From Candidatus Woesearchaeota archaeon (GTDB taxonomy: Archaea; Nanobdellota; Nanobdellia; Pacearchaeales; GW2011-AR1): a DNA stretch of 64,000 nucleotides. The notes under the pieces are model-generated. The model made no database searches. It was not told the origin of the DNA and was given only the letters and a program-made list of their open reading frames with translations. Position numbers and translations under genes: made by a program. Below, piece by piece: positions 2,461 through 35,652 of this stretch (positions within the stretch are counted from its first letter, which is position 1; each line of letters starts with the position of its first letter). Location of the stretch: NCBI GenBank assembly GCA_964466575.1, contig CAYXNP010000005.1, positions 3,938-67,937 on the forward strand, in the 5' to 3' direction.

Positions 2461-2946
2461 ATGGCAACAATTTTAGGAAGAGATAATCTCAAAAAAACAA
2501 CTAAAGACATAATTGAAAAGTCTTTTCCTTTACTAAAACACAAAAAATTTTATCTATATACTACCAAATCTAAAAAATATGTTGGCGGTGCAACTAAACT
2601 TCCATTTATTAATGTTATTAGAATTAATAAAAAATTGTTAAATGATAACCAATATTTAATTGGAGTTTTATCTCATGAATTGAGCCATTTAGAAAGATTT
2701 ACAAAAATGGGATGGATCAAATACTTTTTTGTGGGTATATCATATTGGATAAACGGTTCTGCAAGAACAAAAGAAGAAATGGAAGTAAACAAATTATCAA
2801 TAAGAAAAGGATATGCAAAAGAACTTTATTACGCTATGGTTAAAAATGAACAAAACCCTTACGCTAAGAAAATAAGAAAATATTATATGACTCCAAGTGA
2901 AATTAAATCATATGCAATAAAAATAAAAAAATGGCAACAATTTTAG
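2461..2946 (+). CDS. Hypothetical HExxH (zincin-like) protein
   Basis: SHELSHLE motif; its first 6 codons are identical to the kae1 start. Confidence 0.65.
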   Translation: MATILGRDNLKKTTKDIIEKSFPLLKHKKFYLYTTKSKKYVGGATKLPFINVIRINKKLLNDNQYLIGVLSHELSHLERFTKMGWIKYFFVGISYWINGSARTKEEMEVNKLSIRKGYAKELYYAMVKNEQNPYAKKIRKYYMTPSEIKSYAIKIKKWQQF

Positions 2947-2949
2947 GAA
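2461..2949 (+). repeat. 19-bp exact direct repeat (2461-2479 and 2931-2949) bounding a 470-bp cassette
   Basis: ATGGCAACAATTTTAGGAA occurs at both positions. Confidence 0.9.
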
Positions 2950-4061
2950 TTGAATCAACAGCACACACTTTTGGAATTGGAATTGTGAAAGACGGAAAAA
3001 TCTTAGCAAACAAAAAACACACTTACACGACTGAGAAAGGAGGAATAATACCAATAGACGCGGCAAAGCATCATGAAATACACAAGCACGAATTATATTT
3101 TGAAGCAGTAACAGAAGCAAACATCGACGAGAAACAAATTGACGCGATTGCATTTTCACAAGGTCCAGGATTATCTCCATGTCTTCTTGAAGGATTAAAA
3201 TTCGCAAAAGAACTTTCTAAAAAATTAAACAAACCTTTGGTTCCAGTAAACCATTGCGTTGCACATTTAGAAATTGGAAAATTAACCGGTGCTAAAAACC
3301 CTGTTTTACTTTACGCGTCAGGCGCAAACACACAAATCATTGCCTACGCATCCGGCAAATACAGAGTCTTCGGAGAAACTCTCGATCTCGGCATCGGAAA
3401 TTTCATTGATACTTTCGCGCGAGAATGTGGAATAGGATTTCCCGGCGGCCCAAAAATCGAAGAGCTCGCAAAAAAATCCTCAGAAAAAAATTACATAGAA
3501 CTACCCTACATCGTAAAAGGAATGGACGTCGCATTCTCTGGAATTTTGACAAATTTGAAACAAAAATTAGAAAAAATGAATAAAAATAATTTACCCTCCT
3601 CACAAACTCGTGAGTTATTAAAAAATGTTAGTCTAGATTCATCTGATGATTACATAAATCAAGTTAACAATCTCAAAAGATTTCGAGCGAAGCGAGACAA
3701 ATCAAATAAACCAAATTACACCCTCGAAGATCTTTGTTTCTCACTTCAAGAAACAGTTTTCGCAATGCTCGTCGAGGTTTCTGAAAGAGCAATGGCTCAT
3801 ACTGGAAAAAAGGAATTAGTTTTAGGCGGCGGAGTCGCATGCAACAAACGCCTTCAAGAAATGTGCAAAACAATGTGTAAAGAGCGAGGAGCAAAATTTT
3901 TCACAGTCCCAAATTCCCTTCTCGTCGACAACGGCGCAATGATTGCTTATCTTGGCGAAATTGAATTTAAATCTGGAATAAAATTCGAAGGAAAAAAAGC
4001 ACAAGAATTAGATATTCTTCCTCGACAAAGAACCAACGACGTCGACGTTAGTTGGAGATAG
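2931..4061 (+). CDS. kae1: KEOPS t6A synthase Kae1, with a ~42-aa in-frame insertion
   Basis: LGIESTAHT, GPGL, VNHCVAHLE, SGANT, GGVACN and DNGAMIA motifs. Confidence 0.97.
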   Translation: MATILGIESTAHTFGIGIVKDGKILANKKHTYTTEKGGIIPIDAAKHHEIHKHELYFEAVTEANIDEKQIDAIAFSQGPGLSPCLLEGLKFAKELSKKLNKPLVPVNHCVAHLEIGKLTGAKNPVLLYASGANTQIIAYASGKYRVFGETLDLGIGNFIDTFARECGIGFPGGPKIEELAKKSSEKNYIELPYIVKGMDVAFSGILTNLKQKLEKMNKNNLPSSQTRELLKNVSLDSSDDYINQVNNLKRFRAKRDKSNKPNYTLEDLCFSLQETVFAMLVEVSERAMAHTGKKELVLGGGVACNKRLQEMCKTMCKERGAKFFTVPNSLLVDNGAMIAYLGEIEFKSGIKFEGKKAQELDILPRQRTNDVDVSWR

Positions 4062-4063
4062 AA

Positions 4064-4359
4064 ATGGTAATTAAATTTCAAACAAAGGATGAAACAGGCA
4101 GAACACTAAGAATGACCGATTGGAATTGGATACATATAATTAGAAGACATCCAGAAATATCTTCTGAAAAAGAAAGAATAATTGAAACAATTGAAAATCC
4201 AGACAAAATATTGCCCTCTTTAAAAGATGAAAATGTTAGATATTATTACAAATATTATAAAGAGAGATATTCAATGAATAAATTTATGATGGTTTTAGTT
4301 AAATATTAAACGGCGATGGATTTATCATATCATCACATTTCGTTAGAAATATAAAATAA
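4064..4359 (+). pseudogene. Frameshifted RelE/DUF4258-like toxin
   Basis: WIHIIRRHPE motif; premature TAA at 4307-4309; adding one T gives a continuation KYLNGDGFIISSHFVRNIK ending just before the next gene. Confidence 0.65.
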
Positions 4360-4360
4360 A

Positions 4361-4606
4361 ATGAAAGAAGCTATTGATGTTTATTATGATGAAGAAACAG
4401 ACTACTTAGAAGTTTCATTCGGCGCTCCGCCGGAAACAGAATACACCGAACAATATGAATCAGAAGTTTTAATTACGCGGGATACAAAAACAAATGAAGT
4501 AAAAAGTATAGGTATTGTAGCATTCAAAAAAAGAACCGATATCCTCAAATCAATTCTTAAAAAAATTGGAATGTCTATTCCTCTAGATATTTCTATCCCA
4601 AAATAA
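4361..4606 (+). CDS. DUF2283-like putative antitoxin
   Basis: VYYDEETDYLEVSF...ITRD...IGI pattern. Confidence 0.7.
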   Translation: MKEAIDVYYDEETDYLEVSFGAPPETEYTEQYESEVLITRDTKTNEVKSIGIVAFKKRTDILKSILKKIGMSIPLDISIPK

Positions 4607-4630
4607 TTAAGTTTAATTAAACAACAAAAT

Positions 4631-4678
4631 TTGCCGGGGCAGAGGACGGATGATGTTGATGTGAGTTGGAAAAATTAA
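4631..4678 (+). pseudogene. Displaced relic copy of the kae1 3' end
   Basis: Translates LPGQRTDDVDVSWKN*, versus the Kae1 end LPRQRTNDVDVSWR*. Confidence 0.85.
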
Positions 4679-5508
4679 TCCATTCTTTGTGATTGTTTCC
4701 AAAATGACTGGAACATAAAAAGATCTTTACCTGTGTATCTTTTCTGCTCCTCTGTACAAGATGTACAATCTGACCAGATTGCTTTATCTGTAATCATCTC
4801 TTTTAGTTTGATTAAATCGTTGCTGTTGATTATGCCATCGCCTTTTTTTAATGCGGTTATGGGATAAAGGTCATATTTAGAAAAAAAGTTTATTGTTGGT
4901 GTGGGAGTTGGTGTTGGTGTTTCATAAATAATTTCTTCTATTGTTGTCGTAAGATTGACTGTACCACTCATTGCTGCTTCTGGATAATCTCCAGACAGTT
5001 CAACATTCTTCCCATCTACTGCTATGTAGTAAAATGTCCCAGGTACCGCTTCAAATGTAACTTTGCTCCTACTTTCGTTCATATTAAAATCAATATCATC
5101 ATTTGCTACAACTTCTGTTAAAGTTTTATCTTCATTCAATGTATAAACAGCCATGATAGTATCAAAATCGCTCCTTATCGTATCAATACTTACGATCGTC
5201 CTGTAATCTATTACTTCATATCTGAACCATATAGATTTTCCCCCTGGATTACCTGCATGACCTGTTTCTGCCACCACCCCATTAATTAAACGCCCCGGTT
5301 GATTCTGAATTGTTGCCTCATTATTTGTGTACCCGGACATTTCTTCATCTTGACCAAATGCCGTTGCATTCTCAAAATCATCATTTGGTAAAAGTGATTT
5401 AGATATCTCATCCTTTGGCTTTGCATTCACAATATATTTATCTGCATAAACTGTAGAAAGACCGCCTAATGCCAATCCTAATCCAACAATTACTTCAAGT
5501 GTTCTCAT
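4675..5508 (-). CDS. Secreted or surface protein with PPC-like domain, TP-repeat linker and dockerin/EF-hand-like end
   Basis: Signal peptide; NDDF, FDTIMAVY, YYIAVDG, TPTPTPTPT and GDGIINSNDL motifs. Confidence 0.65.
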   Translation of the reverse strand: MRTLEVIVGLGLALGGLSTVYADKYIVNAKPKDEISKSLLPNDDFENATAFGQDEEMSGYTNNEATIQNQPGRLINGVVAETGHAGNPGGKSIWFRYEVIDYRTIVSIDTIRSDFDTIMAVYTLNEDKTLTEVVANDDIDFNMNESRSKVTFEAVPGTFYYIAVDGKNVELSGDYPEAAMSGTVNLTTTIEEIIYETPTPTPTPTINFFSKYDLYPITALKKGDGIINSNDLIKLKEMITDKAIWSDCTSCTEEQKRYTGKDLFMFQSFWKQSQRMD

Positions 5509-5804
5509 TATCAACGAAAAGAAATCCTATTTTTAAGCTTTTTGATGAATGCTCGCAAGCGCAGATCTATGTTTAATATCATGATAAAAATAACCCTTCT
5601 TTAATAATCACTCAACATCACAACAATTGCACTCCTCCAAAGTCGTCGTGTTATTAACCCTATGTTAACTCTGCGACATTTGAAAGGAAGGTTAAGCGAA
5701 GGAAACCTTGGTGTCCTCGCGCAGCAAATTATTAATTGAAACAGAATTTGAGCAAAAGATTAAAAGTAAATGATGTTAAGATTCATGGTTTACTTTATAG
5801 TAAA

Positions 5805-7613
5805 TTATGTAGATATAAATTCTGAAATAGGAATTCCATACTTCCCCATTTCTTCGTGGATTTTTACTTTTAATGTTTCGTATTGTTCAGTAGCTTCTTT
5901 TCTAAAATCCCTATGAAGTTCATGGCATTTTTCTTCAGCGCTTTTTAAAATTGAGTCTGCTCTTTTTCTCACCTGCCTGACTTTCTCCTTAACATCACAT
6001 CTTTGAGAAAGATTTTCAAGATAAGTTGAAAATTGCTCGTAAAGTGTTTCTGTTTGTTTTGTAAAACCATGTGCATCAGACAAAGCGCGAGTTATTGCCT
6101 TATAATGGTCCAATTTAATTGAATTTGATACAGCGTCGGGAAAATACCGTGGATTTGTTGCAAGAGTCCCTAATAAATATTTGGTATACTCAACAACATC
6201 TGGAGCAAAAAGATGATTTCGCAAGGACCTTCCAAAAGCAACCATGCCTTCAAGATTTAAATGGGAGACTCTTTTTATTGGGCCTTTATTTCTTTGTAAA
6301 ACTCTATCCCTATCGTAAAAATTCTTGGGGTCAAACAATTTCTCAAGCATATCCACATATCCTTCAATCAAAAATTTTTCATCAAGTTTTGGTTTAAAAT
6401 TTAAACTTAATTGATGAGTATTATCTCCTTTTGTTTGTGTACGCAAACGCCCCTCTTTTTCAAGCCGCTCATAAAGCGGAGTGCCTTTTGACGCAATTAG
6501 CAAACCTGGCATTGGAATTACTATCCCTGCTGTTTGAATAAACTCATATAATTTTTCAAAAACATCTGGCTTGTCTTCATCGCTTCCGACGATAAAACCG
6601 CTGGAAACATTAAGTCCTGCCTTTTGCATTCTCTGAACAGATTCTAATGGAGACATTTTTGTATTTTGCCTTTTACCCATTCCTTTAAGAACATCTTCAT
6701 CAACAGATTCTAAACCAATAAAAACTTCTTCAAATCCTGCCTTAACCATCTTCTCAAGAATATCTTTATTTTCATCAAACGCCAAATCCAAACTTGCTTG
6801 AGTAAACAATGGATATGGAAATTCATTATCTTTTTGCCACTTTTCCAAATAAGGCAAGAACTCTCTAAGATTTTTCACATTTCCCATTAAGTTATCATCT
6901 AAAACCATAACCGAACCCATAAATCCAGTATCCTTTACTGCTTGAAATTCATGTATCATTTGTTCAGGAGATTTTGTCCTCGGAATTCGTCCGTTTAAAA
7001 CAACTACATCACAAAATTCACAATTATATTTGCATCCGCGGGAATATTGAATTCCTACAGAATTATAATCACCTAATCTTAATAAATCCCAGCGAGGAAT
7101 CGGCGTCGACGACAAATCGGGCTTGCCGTTTCTCAATAAAGGAATATTAAAACGCCCTTGACTAATAACATCTTCTTCTGTATAAAAATGTCTTGCGTTT
7201 CCACTTTTGAAATCTTCTAAAAACGCAGGAAGTATTAACTCTGCTTCTCCTCGAAAAACAAAATCTGCTTTTGAATTTTCAGGATAAGATGATGGACCTG
7301 GCCCGCCGTCAAGAACAGGAACTCCATAAAAATGCGCTCTATCAACAATTTCATCTCGTGAACCTTCCTGAATTTTCATTGACGAAATCCCCAATAAATC
7401 TGCGCTTCTAATTTTCTCTTCAGTTAATTCTTCAACATTCAAATCAATAATTCTCTGAACTTCAAAATCTTCCTGAGGAAACATTGAAGCAACAGTTGCT
7501 GCGCCCGTCGGAGTCATAACCCATTTTTTCCCAACATATTTCAATGATTCTCTAAAACTCCAAAATGTATCTGGAAATTCAGGATAAACAATTTGAATTT
7601 TTGCTCTTAACAT
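5805..7613 (-). CDS. B12-binding-domain radical SAM protein (DUF4070-type C-terminus)
   Basis: RGCKYNCEFC CxxxCxxC motif; YPEFPDTFWSF N-terminus; FIGLES. Confidence 0.9.
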   Translation of the reverse strand: MLRAKIQIVYPEFPDTFWSFRESLKYVGKKWVMTPTGAATVASMFPQEDFEVQRIIDLNVEELTEEKIRSADLLGISSMKIQEGSRDEIVDRAHFYGVPVLDGGPGPSSYPENSKADFVFRGEAELILPAFLEDFKSGNARHFYTEEDVISQGRFNIPLLRNGKPDLSSTPIPRWDLLRLGDYNSVGIQYSRGCKYNCEFCDVVVLNGRIPRTKSPEQMIHEFQAVKDTGFMGSVMVLDDNLMGNVKNLREFLPYLEKWQKDNEFPYPLFTQASLDLAFDENKDILEKMVKAGFEEVFIGLESVDEDVLKGMGKRQNTKMSPLESVQRMQKAGLNVSSGFIVGSDEDKPDVFEKLYEFIQTAGIVIPMPGLLIASKGTPLYERLEKEGRLRTQTKGDNTHQLSLNFKPKLDEKFLIEGYVDMLEKLFDPKNFYDRDRVLQRNKGPIKRVSHLNLEGMVAFGRSLRNHLFAPDVVEYTKYLLGTLATNPRYFPDAVSNSIKLDHYKAITRALSDAHGFTKQTETLYEQFSTYLENLSQRCDVKEKVRQVRKRADSILKSAEEKCHELHRDFRKEATEQYETLKVKIHEEMGKYGIPISEFIST

Positions 7614-7785
7614 ATAAATTACATAAATAATAAGTATAAATAATTTATTCTTATTCAATCCTAACTAATCAAACATTATTCGGGCGGTGTTTTTTCATAG
7701 CAACATTTAAAAACCAAATTTTTCATACTATTTTATCCAATGACTAAATGGAGGATATTATTCTCTAAGTTTTTGGGTTATCAAT

Positions 7786-8088
7786 ATGGCAGACATTTAT
7801 TCAATAGTCGAGAAAGCGCGAAAATCTGGAAAAATAGAAAAAGGCACAAACGAAGTTACAAAAGCGATTGAACGAGAAACTGCAAAGTTAGTTGTCTACG
7901 CTTCTGACGTCGAGCCAAAAGAAATTATCCAGCACATTCCAATTTTGTGCAAAGAAAAAAACATAAAATGTCAGGAAATTGATTCTAAACAAAAATTAGG
8001 AATTGCAGCAGGTTTGCAGGTTGCAACTTCAAGTGTTGCCGTTATTGAAGCTGGCGACGCTAAAAACGAAATAAATTCTTTGAAATAA
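7786..8088 (+). CDS. rpl7ae: Ribosomal protein L7Ae
   Basis: GKIEKGTNEVTKAIER...DVEP motif. Confidence 0.95.
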   Translation: MADIYSIVEKARKSGKIEKGTNEVTKAIERETAKLVVYASDVEPKEIIQHIPILCKEKNIKCQEIDSKQKLGIAAGLQVATSSVAVIEAGDAKNEINSLK

Positions 8089-8092
8089 TAAA

Positions 8093-8338
8093 ATGGCAGC
8101 TCAAACACAAAATGTATTCGCTGAAACAAGAACTTTTTGTATCAAGGGATATTATGAAAAAGGCGGTAATATATTTAATCCCATTTCAGAATTAGAAAAA
8201 AGAAATTATACTTCAAAAGATAGATTTGGTGCATTAGCCCAAGCAAAAGAAGATGGATTAGTTCAATTAGCTTCAATTACAGATGTAACTCCTAAAATAA
8301 TAACTAAAGTGCAGGGAATGACTATTTACGGAAATTAA
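8093..8338 (+). CDS. Hypothetical protein between rpl7ae and rps28e
   Basis: 81-aa ORF tightly coupled to both neighbours; no motif recognised. Confidence 0.65.
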
Positions 8339-8339
8339 A

Positions 8340-8651
8340 ATGGCAAAATCACAAAGACCACAAGATAAGAAATCACAACAAGGACAAAGTAAGCAAGGTG
8401 GATCTAGAAGCGATAAAATCGTAACTGGCGAAGCAGCACCTGGCCATGTTGAAGAAATTATTGGAAGAACAGGATTTCGTGGCGAGATAACGCAGGTAAA
8501 AGTAAAAGTCCTCGAAGGACGAGACCAAGGCCGTTCAATGAGACGAAATGTCAAAGGCCCAATAAGATTAAACGACGTTCTTATGTTAAGAGAAACAGAA
8601 ATCGAAGCGCGAAGAATTAAATCAAAAGTTTCAAAGGGAGCGTATACTTAA
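8340..8651 (+). CDS. rps28e: Ribosomal protein S28e with polar N-terminal extension
   Basis: IGRTG...TQVKV...[24 protein letters not shown]. Confidence 0.95.
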
Positions 8652-9081: not shown

Positions 9082-12000
9082 ATGTCAGAAGATAAATCAG
9101 CGTATAATGCAGAATCGATTAAAGTACTCGAAGGTCTGGAAGGTGTCAGAAAACGTCCTGCGATGTACATCGGCTCAACAGGCAAAGACGGGTTGCATCA
9201 TTTAGTTTACGAAGCAGTAGATAATTCTGTCGACGAAGCTCTGGCAGGTTTCTGTAAAAATATTACAATCATATTAAAAAAAGACGGCTCTGCTGTCATT
9301 GAAGATGATGGAAGAGGAATTCCAGTAGATTTGCATCCAACTCTTAAAATACCGGCAGTTGAAGTTGCACTAACACGGTTGCACGCAGGCGGAAAATTCG
9401 ACAAAAAAAGTTATATGATTTCCGGAGGACTGCATGGTGTGGGTATTTCCTGCGTAAACGCATTATCAAAAAAATTAATTGTAGAAATAAAAAGGGACGG
9501 AAATATTTACCAAATGGAATTCTCAAAAGGAATTACAAAAACCAAATTAAAAATTATTGGAAAATCTTCTTCTAAAGATGACACAGGAACAAAAATTGTT
9601 TTCTTTCCAGATGAAGAAATCTTCTCAACTGTAGTTTTTGATTATAAAGTCTTGGAAACCCGGCTTCGTGAATTAGCTTTTTTGAATGCTGGGCTTAAAA
9701 TAAATTTAATTGATGAAGTTAAAGATAAAAAAGAAATCTTCCAATATCATGGAGGATTAATAGAATTTGTAAAATGGGTAAATCAATCTAAAGAAGTTAT
9801 ACATGCAAAACCAGTCTACTTCAAAAGAGAAGACCCAAAAAGCGGCGTCACAATTGACATAGCTATCCAATACAACTCATCATTCAATGAAAATATATTT
9901 GGTTTTGTAAATACTATAAACACTGTCGAAGGTGGAACTCACGTCGCTGGATTCAAAACTGCTTTAACTCGTGTAATAAATGACTATGCAAAGAAAAAAG
10001 GTTTATTAAAAAACGGGAAAAATGATGGAGAATCATTAAGTGGCGAGGATGTAAGAGAAGGACTAACAGCAATAATCAACTTAAAACTTCCACAACCGCA
10101 ATTTGAAGGACAAACAAAAACAAAATTAGGAAATTCAGAAATCAAAGGCCAGGTTGATTCTATTGTTAGTTCGGCATTAAGTGAATTCTTTGAGGAAAAT
10201 CCAAACGTCGCAAGAAAAATAACAGATAAATCATTGCAGGCTGCTAAAGCAAGGCTCGCTGCAAAAAAAGCAAAGGATTTAGTTCGAAGAAAAAACGCTT
10301 TTTCTTTAGGAGGGCTTCCAGGAAAATTAGCAGATTGCTCAGCTAAAAAATCCGACGACACTGAACTATATATCGTAGAAGGTGAATCAGCTGGAGGTTG
10401 TTTTGAGGGGGATACACAAATAGCTCTTGCAGATGGAAGAAATTTATCGTTTAAAGAATTAGTTAAAGAATACAATGAAAATAAAGAAAACTTCTGTTAC
10501 ACAATTATGGATAATGGAAATGTGGGTATTGAAAAAATTGAAAATCCAAGAATAACAAAAAAAGATGCTGAAGTTATAAAAGTTATTTTAGATAATAACC
10601 AAGAAATTATTTGTACTCCAGATCATAAATTTATGTTAAGAGATGGAGCATATAAAGAAGCTAAGGAATTAAATAAAGAAGATTCTTTAATGCCTTTTCA
10701 TAAAAGATTATCTAAAATTGGTGGAAGAATAACTATTGAAGGATATGAGATGATATGGGATCAAAATAAAACTTGGGTTTTTACACATATGCTTGCAGAC
10801 AAATATAACTTAGAAAATGAAATTTATGAAGAAAATCAAGGAACACATAAACACCATATTGATTTTAATAAATTAAATAATAATCCAACCAATATTATTA
10901 GGATGTCTAAAGAAGAACATTTAATTCTTCATACAGAGCATTTAGACAAAACTATTCATAGAGAAGATATTAAAGAAAAAGCAAAATTGGCTCATCAAAC
11001 TACGGAATACAAAGAAAAAATAAGCAATTGGGCAAAGCAACCTGAAATGAATACAATGCTTTCAATAAGGGCTAAGAAACAATGGGAGAACGATGAATAC
11101 AAGGAATTTATGGTTGAAAAGTTTAAAGAGTTTTATGAATCTAATGAGGAATATAGAAAAATTAATACTGAGAGATTGAATATTGAACAAAAGAAATATT
11201 GGTCAAATCCTATTAATCGTAAAAAGGCGTCTGAGAAAGTTAAGAAGTTTTTTGAGGAGAATCTCGACGCTAAAGTGTATTTATCTAATCTTGCAAAAGA
11301 ACAATGGAAAGATGAAACTTTAATAATTTGGAGAAGACAAAAGACTAGCGGGCAATGGACACCAGAATTTAGAAAAAAAAGAAATGAATCTTTAAATAAA
11401 ACTTATTATAATAAGACGATTAAGTTTATGAAATCTGTTCTAGAACAAAATGGCTCCGTTAATTCTTTTGATGAAGTTCGAATTAAAAATAACGATAAAA
11501 ATATTCTGAGTATGGAAACTTTTTGTGAAAGATTTTTTGATGGAAATTTTGATTTAATGTTGGAAGCAGTTGAAAATTCCAATCACAAGATTAAGAGTAT
11601 TGAAAAATTAGATAATAAAATTGATGTTTATGATATTGAAATTCCTAATACTCATAATTTTGCATTAGCATCAGGAGTTTTTGTCCATAATAGCGCAAAA
11701 CAGGCCCGTAATAAAGAACTCCAGGCAATACTCCCATTAAAAGGAAAAATTCTAAACATTGAAAAAGCAGCTCCAACGAAAGCATTGGGAAGTGAAGAAA
11801 TTGCAAATTTAATTATTGCAATTGGAGTCGGCGTCGGAGAACAATTTAACTTAGAAAAGTTACGTTACAATAAAATAATAATTATGACAGATGCCGACGT
11901 AGATGGAGAACATATCAAGACATTGTTGTTAACTTTCTTTTTCAGATTCATGCCGCAATTAATTGAAAATGGAAACGTATACATTGCGCTGCCCCCTTTA

Positions 12001-12294
12001 TTCAAAATTAGAAAAAACAAAGATTACTATGTTTACACCGACGACGAATTAAAGAAAACAATCGAGAAGCTTGGTGGAAATCCAGTTGTAAACAGATTCA
12101 AAGGTTTAGGAGAAATGTCATCACAACAACTTTGGGAAACAACAATGAATCCAAAAACCAGAAAAATAAAAAAGATTTACATTGAAGACGCCGTCGAGGC
12201 AGACCACACTTTCTCAATGCTTATGGGGGACGACGTGCAGGGAAGAAAAGATTTCATCGCAGAAAACGCAAAGGAGGCAATGTTGGATGTTTAA
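9082..12294 (+). CDS. gyrB: DNA gyrase subunit B precursor (intein-containing; 639-aa extein)
   Basis: VRKRPAMYIG, GGLHGVG, VEGESAGG|S, DADVDG and RFKGLGEM motifs. Confidence 0.97.
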   Translation: MSEDKSAYNAESIKVLEGLEGVRKRPAMYIGSTGKDGLHHLVYEAVDNSVDEALAGFCKNITIILKKDGSAVIEDDGRGIPVDLHPTLKIPAVEVALTRLHAGGKFDKKSYMISGGLHGVGISCVNALSKKLIVEIKRDGNIYQMEFSKGITKTKLKIIGKSSSKDDTGTKIVFFPDEEIFSTVVFDYKVLETRLRELAFLNAGLKINLIDEVKDKKEIFQYHGGLIEFVKWVNQSKEVIHAKPVYFKREDPKSGVTIDIAIQYNSSFNENIFGFVNTINTVEGGTHVAGFKTALTRVINDYAKKKGLLKNGKNDGESLSGEDVREGLTAIINLKLPQPQFEGQTKTKLGNSEIKGQVDSIVSSALSEFFEENPNVARKITDKSLQAAKARLAAKKAKDLVRRKNAFSLGGLPGKLADCSAKKSDDTELYIVEGESAGGCFEGDTQIALADGRNLSFKELVKEYNENKENFCYTIMDNGNVGIEKIENPRITKKDAEVIKVILDNNQEIICTPDHKFMLRDGAYKEAKELNKEDSLMPFHKRLSKIGGRITIEGYEMIWDQNKTWVFTHMLADKYNLENEIYEENQGTHKHHIDFNKLNNNPTNIIRMSKEEHLILHTEHLDKTIHREDIKEKAKLAHQTTEYKEKISNWAKQPEMNTMLSIRAKKQWENDEYKEFMVEKFKEFYESNEEYRKINTERLNIEQKKYWSNPINRKKASEKVKKFFEENLDAKVYLSNLAKEQWKDETLIIWRRQKTSGQWTPEFRKKRNESLNKTYYNKTIKFMKSVLEQNGSVNSFDEVRIKNNDKNILSMETFCERFFDGNFDLMLEAVENSNHKIKSIEKLDNKIDVYDIEIPNTHNFALASGVFVHNSAKQARNKELQAILPLKGKILNIEKAAPTKALGSEEIANLIIAIGVGVGEQFNLEKLRYNKIIIMTDADVDGEHIKTLLLTFFFRFMPQLIENGNVYIALPPLFKIRKNKDYYVYTDDELKKTIEKLGGNPVVNRFKGLGEMSSQQLWETTMNPKTRKIKKIYIEDAVEADHTFSMLMGDDVQGRKDFIAENAKEAMLDV
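10399..11691 (+). mobile_element. 431-aa intein with HNH endonuclease in GyrB
   Basis: Starts CFEGDT; block B CTPDHKF; HHIDFNKLNN; ends [14 protein letters not shown] followed by Ser. Confidence 0.95.
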
Positions 12295-12295
12295 A

Positions 12296-12547
12296 ATGGG
12301 AAAATTAGAAAAACTTGATGGAGCAAATATGGATATTGATTTAGTATCTGAAGATAAAACATCTTGGAAACAAATGAAATGTCCTTGGAACGAAGCCAAA
12401 GGAACAAATATCCACAAATGTGCAATAAAAAATGTCTCTATATGCCCTTATTTTTGTGGAATAGAATACTTAGATAATGTTATATGCTGTTACCCTAATA
12501 AAAATAAATTAGTAGATAATAAATTAAACAAAAAGATAAATAAATAA
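12296..12547 (+). CDS. Small Cys-rich hypothetical protein
   Basis: CPW...HKC...SICPYFCG...CCY; ATG lies just after the gyrB stop. Confidence 0.7.
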   Translation: MGKLEKLDGANMDIDLVSEDKTSWKQMKCPWNEAKGTNIHKCAIKNVSICPYFCGIEYLDNVICCYPNKNKLVDNKLNKKINK

Positions 12548-12548
12548 A

Positions 12549-12881
12549 ATGGCAGATATAAATGATTTCAAAAAGTTAAACATAAGAGTCGGAAAAATAA
12601 TTAGTATAGATGATTTTCCAGAAGCAAAAAAACCAACTTACAAATTAAAAATTGATTTTGGTAAAGAAATAGGAATTAAAAAATCATCAGCTCAATTAGT
12701 TGATAATTACACAAAAGAAGAATTAAAAGATAAATTAGTTTTAGGTATTATCAATCTCCAGCCAAGGCAAATAGGAAATTTCATATCAGAAGTTTTAACT
12801 CTCGGAGTTCCAGATGAAAAAAATAAATGTCTCTTAGTTCAACCTGAATTAAATACTCCTTTAGGAGCCAAATTATATTAA
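12549..12881 (+). CDS. csaA: CsaA/Trbp111 tRNA-binding OB-fold protein
   Basis: DFKKLNIRVGKI...KPTYKLKIDFG...SSAQ...SEVLTLG. Confidence 0.92.
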   Translation: MADINDFKKLNIRVGKIISIDDFPEAKKPTYKLKIDFGKEIGIKKSSAQLVDNYTKEELKDKLVLGIINLQPRQIGNFISEVLTLGVPDEKNKCLLVQPELNTPLGAKLY

Positions 12882-12882
12882 A

Positions 12883-13230
12883 ATGGGAAAATTAGAAACA
12901 CCAGCCTGGATTAAAGAAGGATATGATTCTCCAGCTGAATACAAAAAAGCCATGCAGAAAAATAAATCTTTTACATCGTCAAAGCAATCTGATAATTCTT
13001 CAACAAAAAATCTAAACAAAACATCGTCTAAAAAATTTGAAAAAACTTTTAAAATCAGGGAATGTCCAAAGTGCGAGAGTGATGATGTGGGTGTTGTTGT
13101 TGGCGAAGAGAAAAGTGGAATGTGGGAATGCCGAAAATGTAAATGGAAAGGTGTGAATATTATTCAAAAAGAATTAAACGAAGACGAATTGATGGCTTAT
13201 ATGGATAGCAAAGGGGAGGAAGTTGCATAA
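12883..13230 (+). CDS. Zn-ribbon hypothetical protein
   Basis: CPKCES...WECRKCKW. Confidence 0.75.
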   Translation: MGKLETPAWIKEGYDSPAEYKKAMQKNKSFTSSKQSDNSSTKNLNKTSSKKFEKTFKIRECPKCESDDVGVVVGEEKSGMWECRKCKWKGVNIIQKELNEDELMAYMDSKGEEVA

Positions 13231-13284
13231 AATGATACTAGCACACCCCACATCAAAATTATTCTCACTTAAAATAAATCTTAA

Positions 13285-13342
13285 GCGAAGAAATCTACCG
13301 AAGGTGATTTCGTAGCCATAGATAACACGAATGAAATGAGTG
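13285..13342 (+). repeat. Structured repeat: module B hairpin followed by module A hairpin
   Basis: GC-GAA-GAAATC..GATTTC-GTA-GC, then CAC-GA-AT-GAA-AT-GA-GTG. Confidence 0.7.
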
Positions 13343-13359
13343 GTAAATAAAAATTTAAA

Positions 13360-16300
13360 ATGACAGAAGAAGAAAAACCAATAGATGTTAAAGATGAAAA
13401 AGGAATCATAAACACTGAAATATCAACCGAAATGAAAAAGGCATACTTAGATTATGCTATGTCAGTTATTGTAAGCAGAGCTATTCCTTCAGCAGAAGAC
13501 GGATTGAAACCAGTTCAGCGAAGAATTCTTTATTCAATGAATGCAATGGGATTAAAACCCGGAACTCAAACAAAAAAATCAGCACGTATTGTCGGAGATG
13601 TTATTGGCAAGTTCCACCCGCATGGAGATACAGCAGTTTACGACGCATTAGTGCGGATGGCGCAGGATTTCTCATTAAGATATCCATTAGTTTACGGACA
13701 AGGAAACTTCGGGTGTTTTACGGCCGATACTAAAATTAAACTTGCAGATGGAAGAAATTTATCATTTGCTGAACTTATTGAAGAACATAAACAAGGAAAA
13801 AGAAATTTTACTTATACTATGGATGAGGGGATAATAAAGATAGCTGAAATAAAAAACCCAAGAAAAACAAAAGAAAACACGGAAATTATGAAAGTCATCC
13901 TTGATAATGGGGAAGAAATAAAATGCACTCTTAATCATAAATTTATGTTAAAAGATGGAGATTATAAAGACGCCCAAGAACTAAAGTCTGGAGATTCATT
14001 AATGCCCATTTATTCCAGACTATCTGTAAAATCAGATGATCCTAATGCTATCGGTTATACTATGATTTTTCAGCCAAAATTAAATTTATGGAATTTTGCA
14101 CATATATTATCTGATGAATGGAATATTGAAAATGGAATTTATCAAAAGTCTTCAGGAAGAATAAGACATCACGTTAATTTTAATAAACTTAACAATAATC
14201 CCCATAATATAAGGAGAATGAACTGGAAAGAACATTGGCAAACACATTATAATCTTACTTCTGAAAAGCACAAAAATGATCCGGAATATAGAAAACAGCT
14301 GCAAAAAGGAAGAGAAAAATTCTGGTCAAATGAAGAAAATAGAAAAAAATATTCAAAAAGATTATCTGAAAGAAATTTAGAGAATTGGAAAAAAGAAGAT
14401 TATAGGCAGGAAATGTCAGTTACTTTAAGTGAAGTTAACAAAAGATATTTGAAAGATCATCCTGAAGTTATTGAAGAAATAAGCAAACGAGCTTCTATAA
14501 CTATGAAAAAAATGTGGCAAATGCCAGAATATAAAAGATTATTCCATGATACTATTACTAAAACTAACAAACAAAGAAAAACAAATCAAACGGGCAAAAA
14601 GAAATTTTTGAAAATTTGCAATTACCTTAAAGAAAAGAATATTCCCTTAAATGAGGAAAACTTTGAGAAAATAAGAAAAGATATTTTTGGAATAAAAAGT
14701 TTTACTTCATGGAATTTAGGTTTGCATAAATATTATGAAAATGATAATAACTTGCTTTTAGCAGAAATTAATGGAAATCATAAGGTGGTTGAAATAATAT
14801 TTCTACAGGAGTATGAAGACGTATATGATATTAGCATTGATGTAACGCATAACTTTGCTTTAGCTTCAGGAGTTTTTGTGCATAATTCAATCGACGGTGA
14901 TCCGCCGGCAGCTTATCGTTATACTGAAGCAAGAATAATGCCAATCACTTTAGAACTCTTAGAAGATATTGAAAAAGAAACAGTAAAATTTATCCCTAAT
15001 TTTGACAACTCAACAAAAGAGCCGGTTTTACTTCCAGGAAAATTACCCAACTTATTGTTAAACGGCGCAACAGGAATCGCAGTAGGAATGGCAACAAATA
15101 TTCCGCCGCACAATCTAACAGAAATCTGCGACGCGATAATCACCTATATTAAAAATCCAGATATCACTTTTGAAAAACTTGCACAAATCGTAACAGGCCC
15201 TGATTTTCCAACAGGCGGTTATGTTTCAGGAGACATGCTTGAACTCTACAAAACTGGAAAAGGAAGAATGGTAATGCGTGGAAAAATAACAACTGAATCT
15301 GTACGCAGCAAAGATGCAATTGTCATAACAGAAATTCCATACATGGTTAACAAAACCGATTTAATCACCCAAATCGCAAAAATGATACAGGACAAAAAAC
15401 TTCGGGACGTTTCAGATTTAAGAGACGAATCAAGCAAAGGAAAAATACGAATCGTAATTGAATTAAGAAAAGGAGGAAATTCAAAATTCATAACAAACGC
15501 TATATACAAATACACAAGAATGCAGGACAACTTCAACGCAAACATTTTAGCTCTAGTAGATAACCAACCAAAAGTCCTAAACCTAAAACAAATATTGGAA
15601 GAATACGTCAGATACAGAAAAAAAGTCATAACAAACAGAACAAAATACCTGTTAAAAAAAGCGCAGGAAAGATTAGAAATCGTTGAAGGTTTGCTCATCG
15701 CATTAAATAATATCGACGCTGTAATTACACTAATCAAGAAATCTAAGAACGCAATAGAGGCCTTGGAAGGATTAGTTAAAAAATTTAATTTATCAAGAAA
15801 ACAAGCCCAGGCAGTATTAGATACAAAATTACAGCAGCTAACATCTTTAGAAGTTGAAAAACTCGTGCGGGAACAAAAAGAACTGCATGAGAATATTAAA
15901 GAATATGAAAAAATACTTTCAGATGTCAATGAAGTCTTAAAATTAATAACTAAAGACTTGAACGAATTAAAACGAAAATATGGGGATACTAGAAGAACAT
16001 ATGTATTGCAAAAAGTCGCGGAAATTTCAGAGAAAGACTTGGTGCAAAAAAAAGAAGTTGTTGTGACAATTACTGAAAAAGGTTATTGCAAACGAATGGA
16101 TGTAAAATCCTATCGGGAGCAAAAGCGCGGGGGAAAAGGCGCGATTGGAAGTAATTTAGCAATGGGAGATTTTGTCAAGCAAATGATAACTTGTTCAACG
16201 CACGATTACTTGATGTTCTTTACAACAAGAGGTAAAGTTTATTGGTTGAAAACATACGACATTCCAGAAGCAGAAAAATACAGCAAAGGAAAAGCAATTG

Positions 16301-16989
16301 TTAACCTGTTAAATTTGAAAGATGAAGCGGTTACAAATGTAATCTCAGTTAAATCTTTTGAAGATTCATTATTTATGACAACTAAAAAAGGAATAGTTAA
16401 AAAAATATCCCTGCAGCATTTCTCTAAACTTCGTGCCAGCGGAGTTAGAGCATTAAATCTTCCGAATGACAATTCTGATTTTTTGATTGGAGTAGAAATT
16501 GTCAAACCAAAACAGGAAGTTCTCTTGGCGACAAAAAAAGGGCAGGCAATAAAATTCAACAGTGATGATATTAGAGAAATGGGAAGAGCTTCTTATGGTG
16601 TTACAGGAATAAAAATGAGTAGTGGCGACGAGGTTGTTTCATTGGAAATCTTAGATACAGTCGCTGTTATGACAATTACAGAAAATGGTTATGGTAAAAG
16701 AACTGCTGTTCAAGACTATAGAAAAACAGCTCGTGCAGGAAAAGGCGTTATCAATGTCAAAGTCTCAGAAAAAACCGGCGAAGTTGTAACAACAGTTTCA
16801 GTAAACGATTCTGATTCAATAATAATCACAACTGCAAAAGGAATTGTTATTAGAACTTCTTTGAAGAACATCCGAGTAATGGGAAGAGCCGCGCAAGGAG
16901 TTAGAATTGTAAAACTTCAGCAAGGTGATAAAGTTACTGACTTGGTAAAAGTGCAGGAAGAGAATGGGAATGGGGAGGGAAAAGAGTAA
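13360..16989 (+). CDS. gyrA: DNA gyrase subunit A precursor (intein-containing; 818-aa extein)
   Basis: [23 protein letters not shown] catalytic Tyr, GyrA-box QKRGGKG and C-terminal pinwheel repeats. Confidence 0.97.
13714..14886 (+). mobile_element. 391-aa intein with HNH-like endonuclease in GyrA
   Basis: GNFG|CFTADT start; CTLNHKF; [10 protein letters not shown]; ends [14 protein letters not shown]|S. Confidence 0.95.
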
Positions 16990-16995
16990 AATTAA

Positions 16996-17514
16996 TTACA
17001 ATGTCCCATACCAAATATCTGATTTATGTTTTTGTTTTAAAAATTTAACAACCTGATGAACTTCGCCTATTTTTGAAGAATAATTTCTTCTATTTCTAGT
17101 TCTTTCAAATTTAGATAATCCTTTAGGTTCAACCCACTCTCCAAATTCTTCTTGAGCTATTTCAAAAGATGATTTCGGTTCACAACCTATTCCGTAATTT
17201 CTCTTAAAATATTCTATTAATTTAATTGGTATTGATCTTCCATGTTCAATTCTTTCAATCTTTGGTTTTGGAGAAATCCGGGGACTTCCATAACATCCAA
17301 CAATTTCTGAAGTTGAAGGAGAAGAATGAACTTTTCTATAATCAACAATATCAATTATCGCCTTTTTCCCATCTAAATATTCTTTCAAGCAATCTTCAAC
17401 AGCTCCTTCAAATCTTTCATAAGATTCATCAGAATCCAAAAGCGCAGCTAATGATTGGCTCATTCCAAGTTTTCCTACAAGTTCATCTAACTTCTTCCTT
17501 TTAGTTTCTTCCAT
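16996..17514 (-). CDS. Hypothetical protein
   Basis: 172-aa ORF with a TATA-like element upstream. Confidence 0.65.
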   Translation of the reverse strand: MEETKRKKLDELVGKLGMSQSLAALLDSDESYERFEGAVEDCLKEYLDGKKAIIDIVDYRKVHSSPSTSEIVGCYGSPRISPKPKIERIEHGRSIPIKLIEYFKRNYGIGCEPKSSFEIAQEEFGEWVEPKGLSKFERTRNRRNYSSKIGEVHQVVKFLKQKHKSDIWYGTL

Positions 17515-17573
17515 AAAATCAAGTAAAATTCGTCCTATAAAAACCTTTCGTCTATTACCACTTGCAAGTTACA

Positions 17574-17819
17574 TTATTGCTCGTCCTTATGATAAATTGT
17601 TAAGAAAATAAGCTCGTTAGCATTTTGTTCATAAGAATATGATAACCTAAAACTCCCAGCATAAACTTCCCTCGTTCCTTTTCTTTCATACTTCATTGGT
17701 TTTCCAATTTCAGGATTTTCAATAATTTTATTTACTAATTTCTTTATTTGAATCTTTAAAGAATTATCCAGTTTTTTAAAAGTCTTTTGAAATCTTGGCG
17801 CATAAGTATATTTTACCAT
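17574..17819 (-). CDS. RelE/ParE-family toxin
   Basis: FQKTFKKL...IIENPEIGKPM...FRLSY...IYHKD. Confidence 0.85.
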   Translation of the reverse strand: MVKYTYAPRFQKTFKKLDNSLKIQIKKLVNKIIENPEIGKPMKYERKGTREVYAGSFRLSYSYEQNANELIFLTIYHKDEQ

Positions 17820-18004
17820 TTATCAATTTCTTTCAAAAATTCTTCTTTAGGCATTGTAATGCCTTTTCCTTCATCTATTTCTTCCCAAGCTTCTTCAGTA
17901 TCACGCGCGAAATCTAAATCTTCTCTAATTTTAGCAACCTCTAACTTTAAGGCAATCAAATCTTCATTCATTTTCCTAATATCAATAGTTTGTTCCATAA
18001 TCAT
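17813..18004 (-). CDS. Putative antitoxin
   Basis: Small acidic ORF overlapping the toxin start; EAWEEIDEGKG...EEFLKE. Confidence 0.8.
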   Translation of the reverse strand: MIMEQTIDIRKMNEDLIALKLEVAKIREDLDFARDTEEAWEEIDEGKGITMPKEEFLKEIDKW

Positions 18005-18062
18005 AAATAATTCTAAAGTTTTTATATTTTTCTGTGAAGAGAAATGGTGGGGGAAAGAGTAA
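17995..18062 (+). repeat. Antitoxin promoter plus gyrA-end relic, copy 1 (copy 2 at 18708-18776)
   Basis: Near-identical ~68-bp segments; both end like the gyrA 3' end GAAGAGAA...GGGAAAAGAGTAA. Confidence 0.85.
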
Positions 18063-18109
18063 ATACCTGCTCACCTCATTCGCAGATCATATAATCATTT
18101 TAATCTAGA

Positions 18110-18179
18110 TTTATCAATTAATACCATCATCAATGTTGAATCTGAGTTAACCAAGATTTATAGAACGAGCTTGCGAGTG
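18110..18179 (+). repeat. ~70-bp repeat ending in a module A hairpin (second copy ~19178-19246)
   Basis: TATCAATTAATACCATCATCAAT..AATCTGAGTTAACCAA.ATTTATAGAACGAGCTTGCGAGT occurs twice. Confidence 0.9.
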
Positions 18180-18249
18180 CTAATTTTTATTTAGAAAGTG
18201 AACTTAACACAAGATAATATTTTATAAATAGTTCTATATTAACAATATC

Positions 18250-18576
18250 ATGACTAACTTTAAAGTTTATCATTCGGCTAGGTTTAATAGAGAATTATCT
18301 AAGCTTGGTGTTGATTTTCAAAGGCGGGTTGATAAAATTGAAGATGAGATTTCTGAAAATCCATATACAGGAAAACCATTAAATGTAAAATGGTTTAGAG
18401 AGAAAAGATATGGAAGTCACCGAATTTATTATCTTGTTTATGAAGACTTGAAATCAGTTATTTTTGTTGGTATAAGTGATAAAGATAATCAACAGCAAGT
18501 TATTAACACAATTAGATTATTATTTAGTTATTTTAGAGAGGAAATAGAAAAACTGCTGGAAAAAGACTTTGATTAA
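18250..18576 (+). CDS. RelE-like toxin
   Basis: ENPYTGKPL...FREKR...RIYYLVY...SDKDNQQ. Confidence 0.75.
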   Translation: MTNFKVYHSARFNRELSKLGVDFQRRVDKIEDEISENPYTGKPLNVKWFREKRYGSHRIYYLVYEDLKSVIFVGISDKDNQQQVINTIRLLFSYFREEIEKLLEKDFD

Positions 18577-18711
18577 TTATCTAACTCTTATAATTCTCCC
18601 TTCTTTTATGTCCTTAAAACTTTCTATGAGTTGTTCTAATAATTCTACATCTATGTTTGCTTGCATTTTCAGCTTTTCATATTCTTCTTTTGAAATAGTT
18701 ATCATTTCCAT
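18577..18711 (-). CDS. 44-aa antitoxin-like peptide convergent on the toxin
   Basis: MEMITISKEEYEKLKMQANIDVELLEQLIESFKDIKEGRIIRVR; shares its upstream region with the 17813-18004 antitoxin. Confidence 0.75.
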   Translation of the reverse strand: MEMITISKEEYEKLKMQANIDVELLEQLIESFKDIKEGRIIRVR

Positions 18712-18808
18712 AATCATAAATAATCTTCAAGTTTTTATATTTTTCTGTGAAGAGAAATGATGAGGGGAAAGAGTGAGAATAAAATAATTGAAAATTCACT
18801 AGAAATTT

Positions 18809-19120
18809 TTATAAACAAATATTTAGCGCAGAGTTATTTACTTTAGTTATAAAACAACTACCATTATACCAAAGAGTAGCGTTACCAACGGTTATATGTT
18901 GAATACTTGCATTATTTGCACTTAACTCATAAAAACTTCCTAACTTAGATTCTATTTCATCAACATTTTGTTTGATTATTATTTGTTGACTTGATGTTTT
19001 AATTAAAAAAATAGCAGTTATTATTAAACCGATTATAGTTGCAATTAAACCTATAAAATTCAGGATTAACATTCCTCTCTGAATTTTCTGATTTCTTGAC
19101 CATTTATTATTCTTTTCCAT
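18809..19120 (-). CDS. Membrane-anchored hypothetical protein
   Basis: One TM helix; start moved to 19120 because the upstream extension lies in a repeat. Confidence 0.6.
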   Translation of the reverse strand: MEKNNKWSRNQKIQRGMLILNFIGLIATIIGLIITAIFLIKTSSQQIIIKQNVDEIESKLGSFYELSANNASIQHITVGNATLWYNGSCFITKVNNSALNICL

Positions 19121-19252
19121 AATATTCACTAACTCTAATGGGTTATAAATTTTTCTCAATACCTTTTGATTTCTATATTTATCAATTAATACCATCATCA
19201 ATATTAAATCTGAGTTAACCAAAATTTATAGAACGAGCTTGCGAGTTCCAAA

Positions 19253-35640: not shown

Positions 35641-35652
35641 TTAATTTAGAAA

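Follow-up and report, generated by a model that had tools for sequence, protein, structure and literature searches.

Housekeeping genes in the DPANN archaeon studied here carry short copies of their own ends on the far side of small accessory cassettes. The 64,000-nucleotide (nt) stretch that we analysed, called the window below, covers positions 3938-67937 of contig C5 in genome bin G000 (1.12 Mb in 40 contigs, 32% G+C, 89% complete), and the metagenome runs containing DNA of this organism come from groundwater and soil. The first 20 kb of the window (1-20 kb) hold kae1, the genes for L7Ae, S28e and L24e, gyrB and gyrA together with small accessory genes. At both ends of kae1, downstream of gyrB and downstream of gyrA, accessory genes lie between two copies of a resident gene terminus, and genome-wide this strand-specific pattern is found at about 10-15 loci in 1.1 Mb. 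With moderate confidence, we favour the explanation that these scars are the product of terminal displacement, in which DNA of relatives is imported repeatedly, homologous on one side and joined illegitimately on the other. The original prediction, made from the sequence of the window, was that gene termini are duplicated at no fewer than four loci with no integrase or transposase in sight. Duplication is confirmed at the four named (19/19 nt at the kae1 start, a diverged 45-nt relic at the kae1 end, 23/24 nt behind gyrB, and weaker copies behind gyrA with p of about 0.002 and 0.01), and a whole-genome profile search placed no recombinase or transposase of the families searched in the window or anywhere on C5. 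Coordinates without a contig name are window positions. G-numbers denote other genomes, G001 being of the same genus, and L-numbers denote loci or contigs, L164 being a metagenome contig of a close strain. All metagenome runs, X10 and X12 included, were examined as assembled contigs, not raw reads.

The functional 3' end of kae1 is LPRQRTNDVDVSWR plus stop at 4017-4061, and a relic of it, LPGQRTDDVDVSWKN plus stop, stands at 4631-4678 behind two small open reading frames (ORFs) that resemble a toxin and its antitoxin (Table 1). Relic and functional end agree at 28/45 nt and at 9/12 amino acids (aa). Across 14 codons, 2 are identical, 9 differ synonymously and 3 non-synonymously, and the longest unbroken identity is 7 nt. 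The toxin gene is shortened in G000 by a 1-nt deletion (a T missing after 4305; window 4300-4310); L164 and the contigs of X10 and X12 keep the T and encode an intact 102-aa toxin ending in NGDGFIISSHFVRNIK plus stop. The truncation is either gene decay or a consensus error in a run of T. The distance from kae1 to L7Ae is 3.7 kb in G000, and kae1 neighbours L7Ae (within the flank) in 11 of 19 loci of other genera.

Copies of this kind are enriched across the genome. For gene ends, we compared the last 12 codons of each gene, stop included, with the 2.5 kb downstream on the same strand and required at least 8/12 aa. Such a copy follows 21 of 1261 genes, against 0/1261 in antisense and 0/1256 in upstream antisense; permuted gene/region pairings gave 9 in 3 x 1279, mostly repeat elements. 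Tandem paralogues, repeat elements and Lys-rich tails account for about half of the 21, and the 10 inspected are clean single-end relics, involving kae1, FtsZ, Nre, LemA, an MnmA-type tRNA enzyme, an ATP-dependent DNA ligase, a laminin-G protein and others. In all ten clean cases the likeness sets in abruptly 20-55 nt before the stop and ceases at the stop. For gene starts, the first 21 nt of a gene were sought upstream on the same strand at 18/21 or better, with antisense as the control, and were found for 7 of 826 genes compared with 0/826; two of the seven are the window loci and two are repeat-element paralogues. Enrichment over a control, which the original prediction had named as a check, is therefore present at both gene ends, and the antisense, permutation and random-segment controls rule out a chance origin. 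The gene-end scan on 659 ORFs of foreign loci returned 3 matches, with none in antisense. Direct repeats of at least 16 nt outnumber inverted ones in the genome, 71 to 5 at 150-500 nt and 54 to 0 at 500-1000 nt, counts that include protein-internal repeats and paralogues and did not serve as the main test. Duplication lengths vary from 19 to 80 nt across loci, and repeats at loci outside the window match at 24/24, 33/34 and 36/38 nt. Over 10 pairs of relic and functional end (100 codons), 63 codons are identical, 27 synonymous and 10 non-synonymous.

The cargo at the clean loci comprises MNT with HepT, DUF4258 with DUF2283, a PBECR2-like gene with DUF2283, and ParE pairs. Type II toxin-antitoxin genes score above cut-off at 17574-17819 (ParE) and, at other loci, as HepT with MNT and DUF4258 with DUF2283; the candidates at 18250-18576, 4052-4309 and 4361-4606 lie below it. 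Cassettes had been predicted to hold single genes, and that part needs amending, as they are often two-gene toxin-antitoxin pairs. The predominance of such pairs in the cargo probably reflects their abundance in the pangenome and their resistance to loss.

At the other end of kae1, the 19-nt sequence ATGGCAACAATTTTAGGAA is present exactly at 2461-2479 and at 2931-2949; a 161-aa SprT-like ORF opens with the first copy and kae1 with the second, both having MATILG as their first 6 codons. The SprT-like gene had been taken for a captured cassette, and this part of the original prediction does not hold. Homologues occur in 19/200 other genomes of the order, and in 6 of 11 fetched loci of other genera the gene abuts or overlaps kae1, ending in GKW-stop on the ATGG of kae1, as in G000. 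The homologues of other genera begin with their own, differing N-termini. Because the SprT-kae1 junction recurs in other genera and the homologues keep their own N-termini, the second 19-nt copy would be the ancestral context and the first the added one. The SprT-like gene appears to be an old neighbour of kae1 in which only the first 6 codons were swapped for those of kae1, the first 19-nt copy probably having replaced its initial codons and supplied the start of kae1. It is missing upstream of kae1 in L164, and a small basic ORF lies upstream of kae1 in 14/19 loci of other genera. As a separate observation, kae1 has an insertion of about 46 aa (window ~3576-3713, residues ~216-261). Among 37 other genomes matching kae1 only G011 and G021 align full-length in one piece, and the kae1 of L164 is also long (386 aa).

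Downstream of gyrB, a 24-nt junction, TTAAAATGGGAAAATTAGAAA(A/C)AC, occurs at 12291-12314 and again at 12878-12901 with 23/24 nt identical. It is made up of the gyrB stop, an A and ATGGGAAAATTAGAAA, and it encodes MGKLE, with which an 83-aa ORF and the resident 115-aa zinc-ribbon gene (ZnR115) both begin. The order gyrB-ZnR115-gyrA is kept in relatives, with gyrB upstream in 16/19 loci and gyrA downstream in 17/19; gyrB and ZnR115 are at most 45 nt apart in 9 of 16, and other ORFs intervene in the remaining 7/16. G001 has gyrB, the 83-aa ORF and ZnR115, without the tRNA-binding-domain gene (tRNA_bind) at this place. Its 83-aa ORF starts with MVEIK, not MGKLE, and overlaps the gyrB stop. By reading, the junction of the 83-aa ORF, the sole one comparable with a relative, has an overlap of AAA only between the two genomes. 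Close orthologues of tRNA_bind are patchy, in about 14/200 genomes at 49% identity or more, the remainder matching paralogues, and 4 of 13 foreign loci have them between gyrB and gyrA, at varying positions.

Two gapped copies of the gyrA end (16956-16989) stand at 18036-18063 and 18749-18780. Their scores, 17 and 16 (antisense 11), were set against 982 random 2261-nt genome segments, of which 0.2% and 1.1% score as high (empirical p = 0.002 and 0.011). Both relics sit inside interleaved direct repeats, D2 (64 nt, 91%, 17993 and 18706) and D1 (80 nt, 93%, 18104 and 19172), and both adjoin homologous promoter-plus-MIME starts of two distinct small ORFs. The gyrA-end copies enclose a ParE toxin, which has a small ORF upstream of it, and another gene of ParE type, together with one more small ORF and two ORFs of unknown kind. 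The Cas4-like gene that closes the interval here faces gyrA tail-to-tail in 5 of 23 loci of relatives, across gaps of about 150-750 nt; in G000 the gap is 2263 nt. G001 has a degenerate homologue of the ParE-like gene (18250-18576) about 150 nt behind gyrA. The gyrA tail of G001 could not be traced in the G000 relics, gyrA tails varying too much. In the probable source run, a contig (depth 11.7) joins 18182 to 19193 through 27 other letters, leaving out the 1,010 nt between the D1 copies, so at least one other form of the gyrA interval exists; this could be the allele of a relative, or the population may have two arrangements. Apart from the relics, gyrB (9082-12294) and gyrA (13360-16989) each contain an intein-like insert of about 440 aa, and the ends of the two inserts are closely alike (CF.GDT...LADGRNLSF...). 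The gyrA frame of relatives is mostly ~810-870 aa long and reaches 1250-1280 aa in 5/30 (G007, G018, G010, G032 and G030), indicating that the insert is carried by some genomes and not others.

Table 1. Features of the four window loci and comparison of G000 with the close strain L164 (window coordinates)
Feature	Position	Strand	Details
Probable added copy of the first 19 nt of kae1	2461..2479	+	Exact repeat; start codon and first 6 codons of SprT-like ORF
SprT-like 161-aa ORF	2461..2946	+	Pfam SprT-like E=0.0025, below cut-off; stop within second 19-nt copy
kae1 (tRNA threonylcarbamoyl transferase), intact	2931..4061	+	PF00814 E=7e-78; probable native start 2931-2949, functional 3' end 4017-4061
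Toxin gene, DUF4258/PBECR-like	4052..4309	+	PBECR3 E=3e-4, below cut-off, plus family alignment; overlaps kae1 stop
Antitoxin-like gene, DUF2283-like	4361..4606	+	DUF2283 E=0.012, below cut-off; paired with toxin in every family locus read
Putatively displaced kae1 3'-end relic	4631..4678	+	LPGQRTDDVDVSWKN plus stop; stop overlaps stop of minus-strand ORF 4675-5514; 46/48 identical in L164
Older accessory block between kae1 and L7Ae	4675..7658	-	279-aa ORF and B12/radical-SAM gene
Copy 1 of 24-nt junction	12291..12314	+	gyrB stop, A and ATGGGAAAATTAGAAA; gives 83-aa ORF its start
Putative inserted pair	12296..12881	+	83-aa Cys-rich ORF (12296-12547) and accessory tRNA-binding-domain gene (12549-12881), PF01588 E=9e-14
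Copy 2 of 24-nt junction and resident ZnR115 zinc-ribbon gene	12878..13230	+	Gene 12883-13230; conserved gyrB-ZnR115-gyrA synteny
Functional gyrA 3' end	16956..16989	+	
Minus-strand cassette	16996..18030	-	172-aa ORF, ParE toxin (17574-17819; 31.6 bits, cut-off 23), 63-aa antitoxin-like ORF (17813-18004), promoter-like AT box
First putatively displaced gyrA-end relic (EEKWWGKE-stop)	18036..18063	+	Inside D2a (17993-18056)
D1a, relic of 5' end and upstream region of 137-aa ORF	18104..18183		Full copy D1b 19172-19251, ends 2 nt from Cas4-like stop; 80 nt, 93%
ParE-like gene (18250-18576, +) and 46-aa antitoxin-like ORF (18577-18717, -)	18250..18717		ParE_toxin 22.3 bits, below cut-off 23
D2b with second gyrA-end relic (18749-18780)	18706..18780	+	
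137-aa ORF and resident Cas4-like PD-(D/E)XK nuclease gene (19253-20089)	18809..20089	-	PF12705 E=5e-33; closes interval
L164 vs G000, left flank	2409-2430		22/22 identical, to locus limit
L164 vs G000, slot 5' of kae1			148-aa minus-strand ORF replaces SprT-like gene
L164 vs G000, kae1	3726-4061 measured		17% diverged (58/336); MATILG start, synonymous changes in codons 4-6
L164 vs G000, cassette and relic	4062-4678		1.6% diverged (10/617), i.e. 98.4% identity
L164 vs G000, slot 3' of relic			126-aa ORF replaces 279-aa ORF
L164 vs G000, radical-SAM gene			97.8% identical

Genes had been predicted to be gained and lost at core-gene ends, and the comparison with relatives bears this out: their neighbouring genes differ, L164 holds other genes in both kae1 slots, and empty or alternative alleles, not identical cassettes, are seen. 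Conserved and replaced blocks alternate in L164, switching at the start and stop of kae1 and at the end of the relic, which places the recombination breakpoints at gene ends. Within the relic, both differences between the strains follow a shared AGTTGGA. Variant positions of the L164 type (4022-4061 and others) are also found in contigs of X10 and X12. These runs contain the SprT-like allele as well, at ~98-99% identity, on contigs that cover 2353-2959 and 2353-2950 unbroken, so both alleles circulate. The resident gene had been expected to stay intact; kae1 is intact, but in the strain comparison kae1 itself appears to be the diverged, exchanged part, at 17% against 1.6% for the cassette and relic.

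The kae1 3' end is probably a recurrent hot spot across genera, judging from the loci compared. The toxin family is present in 50/300 other genomes of the order and is frequently multicopy. Among 13 species-representative loci the toxin-antitoxin pair lies directly 3' of kae1 in three (L129, L138 from G116, and L139), and in one more (L135 from G051) it is inverted and adjoins L7Ae. Three other genomes have kae1-end relics. In G116 the relic stands right behind the antitoxin, INPRERTDDVNVGWR plus stop against the functional INPRERTDDVIVVWR plus stop, with the first 29 nt identical; since a remnant of an older toxin gene follows 3' of it, this locus is a stacked array. The relic at L129 is decayed (17/20 nt). 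In G131 (L023, G131:C9, 3087-3153) the relic begins 31 nt past the stop with no cargo gene, and a 29-nt hairpin with a perfect 7-bp stem (CGTGAAC...GTTCACG) lies between the functional end and the relic. The window's pair is in none of 19 kae1 loci of other genera, nor do these loci repeat their own kae1 ends (best 12-15/21 nt and 21-25/45 nt). Both kae1 copies of G000 were also compared with 27 functional ends of other genomes; every pairing gave 24-29/33, which does not discriminate the native copy.

Displacement would work as follows. Incoming DNA from related archaea would carry a conserved core gene, or its end, with an adjoining accessory gene. The core-gene side would recombine homologously, and the far side would be joined without homology or through a microhomology of a few bases, at a point within 20-55 nt of the start or stop of the resident gene. 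That gene would stay or become intact, its old terminus would be shifted beyond the new DNA, and incoming ORFs with a lost end would be fused in frame to a resident start or stop. Later, ordinary homologous recombination would swap cassettes, and even the core gene, among strains with breakpoints at gene ends, and repeated rounds would stack relics, as 3' of gyrA. RadA is present in G000. Homology-facilitated illegitimate recombination was among the mechanisms put forward in the original prediction, and homology-anchored recombination would indeed fit best.

These loci show the hallmark of such displacement: the core gene is intact, and what is apparently its old end persists on the far side of the added DNA. 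The end that a locus duplicates is in every case that of the adjoining gene, with no common motif by reading, which argues for displacement. Donor-like arrangements in relatives (SprT-kae1 in 6/11, kae1-toxin-antitoxin in 3/13 and tRNA_bind in 4/13 loci) point the same way, as far as synteny can suggest it; for Nre a donor-type arrangement is absent, MNT/HepT adjoining it in 0/23 loci of relatives. The in-frame fusion of 5'-truncated ORFs (the SprT-like and the 83-aa ORF) to resident starts fits displacement, and so would the AAA-only overlap at the junction of the 83-aa ORF. Differences between copies are mostly synonymous, as expected because the two would be once-functional alleles.

Several points weigh against displacement. 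The synonymous excess is inflated, since relics were selected by amino-acid identity. ComEC and DprA, DNA-uptake genes of the bacterial type, were not found in the 89%-complete genome, and no donor-recipient pair was found among the data compared. Cassette and relic are equally conserved between G000 and L164, and a mobile cassette with its own gene-end tag would look alike. The regularity of the joins, all within 20-55 nt of the gene end, would need selection or later trimming beyond the mechanism itself. Three of the four kae1 relics share an Asn (VNV/VNA) that occurs in 2/27 functional copies, a count made by reading in which kin are not independent; it may hint that the relics are related to one another. 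The empty gyrB-ZnR115 junction had 0 matches in the metagenome contig collection. Neither cassette-less nor circular junctions were found in the contigs read, and none of the 15 joints listed is cassette-less (161 further joints lie beyond these), although contigs cannot show absence.

The main rival reading, possible if unlikely, is that the cassettes address themselves, in line with the small circles suggested in the original prediction. A toxin-antitoxin pair with a short copy of a gene end would pop out as a circle and re-enter by a single crossover at the homologous end, with no recombinase of its own. The unit at 4062-4678 is nearly identical in G000 and L164 between flanks that are diverged or unrelated, its relic differing only after AGTTGGA, and the cassette family occurs with a kae1-end copy in three further genomes. 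The Asn common to three of the four relics would also be accounted for, and the 24/24-, 33/34- and 36/38-nt repeats elsewhere could sustain recombination. At kae1, however, 7 nt of unbroken identity is insufficient for ordinary homologous recombination. Same-family cassettes away from kae1 are without a kae1-like tag (0 matches outside kae1 loci among L112-L139), the right junction of SprT and kae1 is ancestral synteny and not the end of an element, and no circular junction was seen in the contigs. The radical-SAM block is also ~98% identical between the strains, so the conserved unit may be vertical background. We regard as more doubtful still the wider proposal that toxin-antitoxin pairs of Pacearchaeota are recombinase-free cassettes with a copy of a housekeeping-gene end as an address tag, their circles re-entering the same gene end even across genera and the toxin punishing loss, which would make them a minimal selfish integrative element.

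Integrase-mediated insertion classically leaves direct repeats of 17-55 nt where a gene terminates at its 3' end, with the gene itself intact. The repeats could be the attL and attR of small non-autonomous elements, comparable to cis-mobilisable ones, each element bringing a replacement for the gene end; a tyrosine or serine recombinase with gene ends as its target would act on them in trans. We find this reading quite improbable. Gene-end-derived direct repeats with the gene kept intact are present here, the stacked gyrA relics resemble tandem accretion, and the 7-nt common core of the kae1 pair would suit a tyrosine recombinase. The genome has the enzymes for it in small number: PF00589 matches only on C8 and PF00239 only on C18, one integrase and one serine recombinase. 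The former, at C8:25651-28512 (locus L109), is the sole tyrosine integrase (454 aa) and stands beside three partial direct tRNA-like repeats (25697, 25921 and 26083), a locus that looks like a classical integrative element. Neither recombinase is on C5, and two recombinases face at least 10 loci with differing repeats of 19-80 nt and, by reading, no shared core. A site-specific system would need many specificities, because the repeated end differs from locus to locus, being that of the adjoining gene. The in-frame fusion of truncated ORFs at the 5' cases would also go unexplained. An integron-like or att-site system is unlikely because there is no recombinase on the contig and each locus has its own repeat; the integron-like outcome foreseen in the original prediction survives as an analogy of outcome, without IntI on C5 or a common site.

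Local events with no import, either tandem duplication of a gene end followed by decay or insertion, or ancient relics kept alike by gene conversion, are less probable again. Plain local duplications do exist among the matches (C7, 110/123 nt at +101; C13, 134/172 nt at +838), and the first 29 nt of the G116 relic equal those of the functional end, as conversion might leave them. Yet the DNA between the copies is unrelated to its neighbours and patchy in relatives (19/200, ~14/200 and 50/300 genomes), a strain at ~2% background divergence has alternative genes in the same slots, and the copy differences are mostly synonymous.

We consider it very improbable that an assembly artefact, strain variants of one locus concatenated in the bin, produced the pattern. 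Logan contigs of the probable source run do break at D2 (18045 and 18730), and one contig of that run makes the 18182-19193 join described above. Against this, repeats of 19 and 24 nt fall below the word length used in assembly, two other studies have contigs that span 2353-2959 (2353-2950 in the second) and also 17701-18114, L164 independently shows kae1, cassette and relic, and independent assemblies of other genera have the same layout at kae1. The loci other than gyrA are already safe from this reading, an outcome that meets the artefact concern raised in the original prediction.

Retro-insertion with variable duplications is hardly credible: the genome has two partial reverse-transcriptase (RVT_1) matches, C1:23515-23802 and C20:15541-15840, and nothing links them to the cassettes. 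The C20 match has direct repeats beside it (16436 and 16870) and may be part of a diversity-generating retroelement. Such an element was rejected as the source of the kae1 copies, RVT_1 matching on C1 and C20 only and the copy differences, by reading, involving all bases and not being adenine-specific. A casposon is ruled out, as Cas1 had no match in the genome; rve and TnpB-type profiles likewise had no match over cut-off there (both below it on C4/C15). A transposon with target-site duplication was also rejected: DDE matches (PF01609) are confined to C9 and C37 and the duplications of 19-80 nt are not of fixed length, terminal inverted repeats having been outside the search.

Other repeats were observed in the genome. 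Short G+C-rich intergenic motif families are conspicuous in the A+T-rich G000, namely GCTCGC-N2-4-GCGAG(C) hairpins, tandem GCTCGC and a longer ACTCGCGACCCCACTCGAACAAAG family. Sites include window 18163-18183 and 19231-19251, C1:80549, C2:18640, C2:20079, C3:43819/43881 and many others, commonly directly 3' of gene stops and of relics; these motifs may be terminators or a small repeat element. At C6:12984-16704 a 2.8-kb segment (MNT-like and small ORFs) is present in two copies 2794 nt apart, exact over up to 488 nt, with more partial copies close by. Further intergenic direct repeats lie at window 35580-36173 (a 24-nt exact pair, 570 nt apart) and 55228-57610 (a ~110-nt pair, 2277 nt apart).

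Displacement by one-sided homologous recombination would, by analogy, be a known process. Rhs-type displacement is reportedly treated by Jackson et al. 2009, and homology-facilitated illegitimate recombination is said to be the subject of de Vries and Wackernagel 2002 and of Prudhomme et al. 2002. For C-terminal or sequential displacement in Rhs and Vibrio type VI secretion system (T6SS) arrays, the available part of one source proposes homology-facilitated illegitimate recombination (PMC5361080). As the accessible portions of two sources describe it, incoming DNA is anchored by a conserved stretch and joined illegitimately at its other end, and the former end comes to lie behind the cargo (PMC5361080; PMC3240628). 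Rhs, CdiA and T6SS loci are alike in having a new end and cargo beside a conserved gene body, the old end orphaned downstream, arrays from repeated rounds and no integrase; they differ in that, in the part of the source available, their displaced tips are toxin domains and their orphans useful immunity genes at bacterial warfare loci (PMC5361080). In the present archaeon the tips, 20-55 nt long, belong to housekeeping genes, the relics have no function, most of the cargo is toxin-antitoxin, and 5' ends are involved too. Transformable bacteria share the one-sided homologous anchor and the illegitimate other join, and there, according to the accessible part of the source, the process was demonstrated experimentally with known DNA uptake (PMC3240628), whereas in this uncultured DPANN archaeon, which has no recognised uptake genes, it would be read from scars.

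Integrons, archaeal ones included, also collect short or promoterless cassettes, often toxin-antitoxin, by successive addition at a fixed place, as far as the available part of the source describes them (PMC9668308). Here, in contrast, the contig has no IntI, and the loci have no recombination site in common; the borders are the end of the neighbouring gene and locus-specific by reading, no attC model having been run. Integrative and cis-mobilisable elements sit at gene 3' ends, such as those of tRNA genes and of fda in Streptococcus thermophilus. They resemble the present loci in direct repeats from the target gene end, an intact gene and tandem accretion, but here no recombinase is in or near the 0.5-1 kb cassettes, and the targets are many for two recombinases in the genome. 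In the literature searched, which held few subscription papers and no supplements, we found no description of the pattern at archaeal housekeeping genes. What appears to be new is its presence at DPANN housekeeping genes, at both gene ends and at some 10-15 loci in 1.1 Mb, with mostly toxin-antitoxin cargo and probable recurrence at kae1 across genera.

Little is understood of gene acquisition in DPANN archaea, whose genomes are tiny, with few mobile elements that can be recognised and a very patchy accessory content. The scars offer a readable footprint of acquisition that gives the point of entry, the anchor gene and, because relics stack, the order of events, and the question can be tested with existing population metagenomes. 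Cassettes that did carry their own address would amount to a new, recombinase-free class of mobile element, and they would explain how toxin-antitoxin pairs move. The scars also show essential genes such as kae1 being exchanged among strains along with their neighbours, which bears on the use of such genes as markers.

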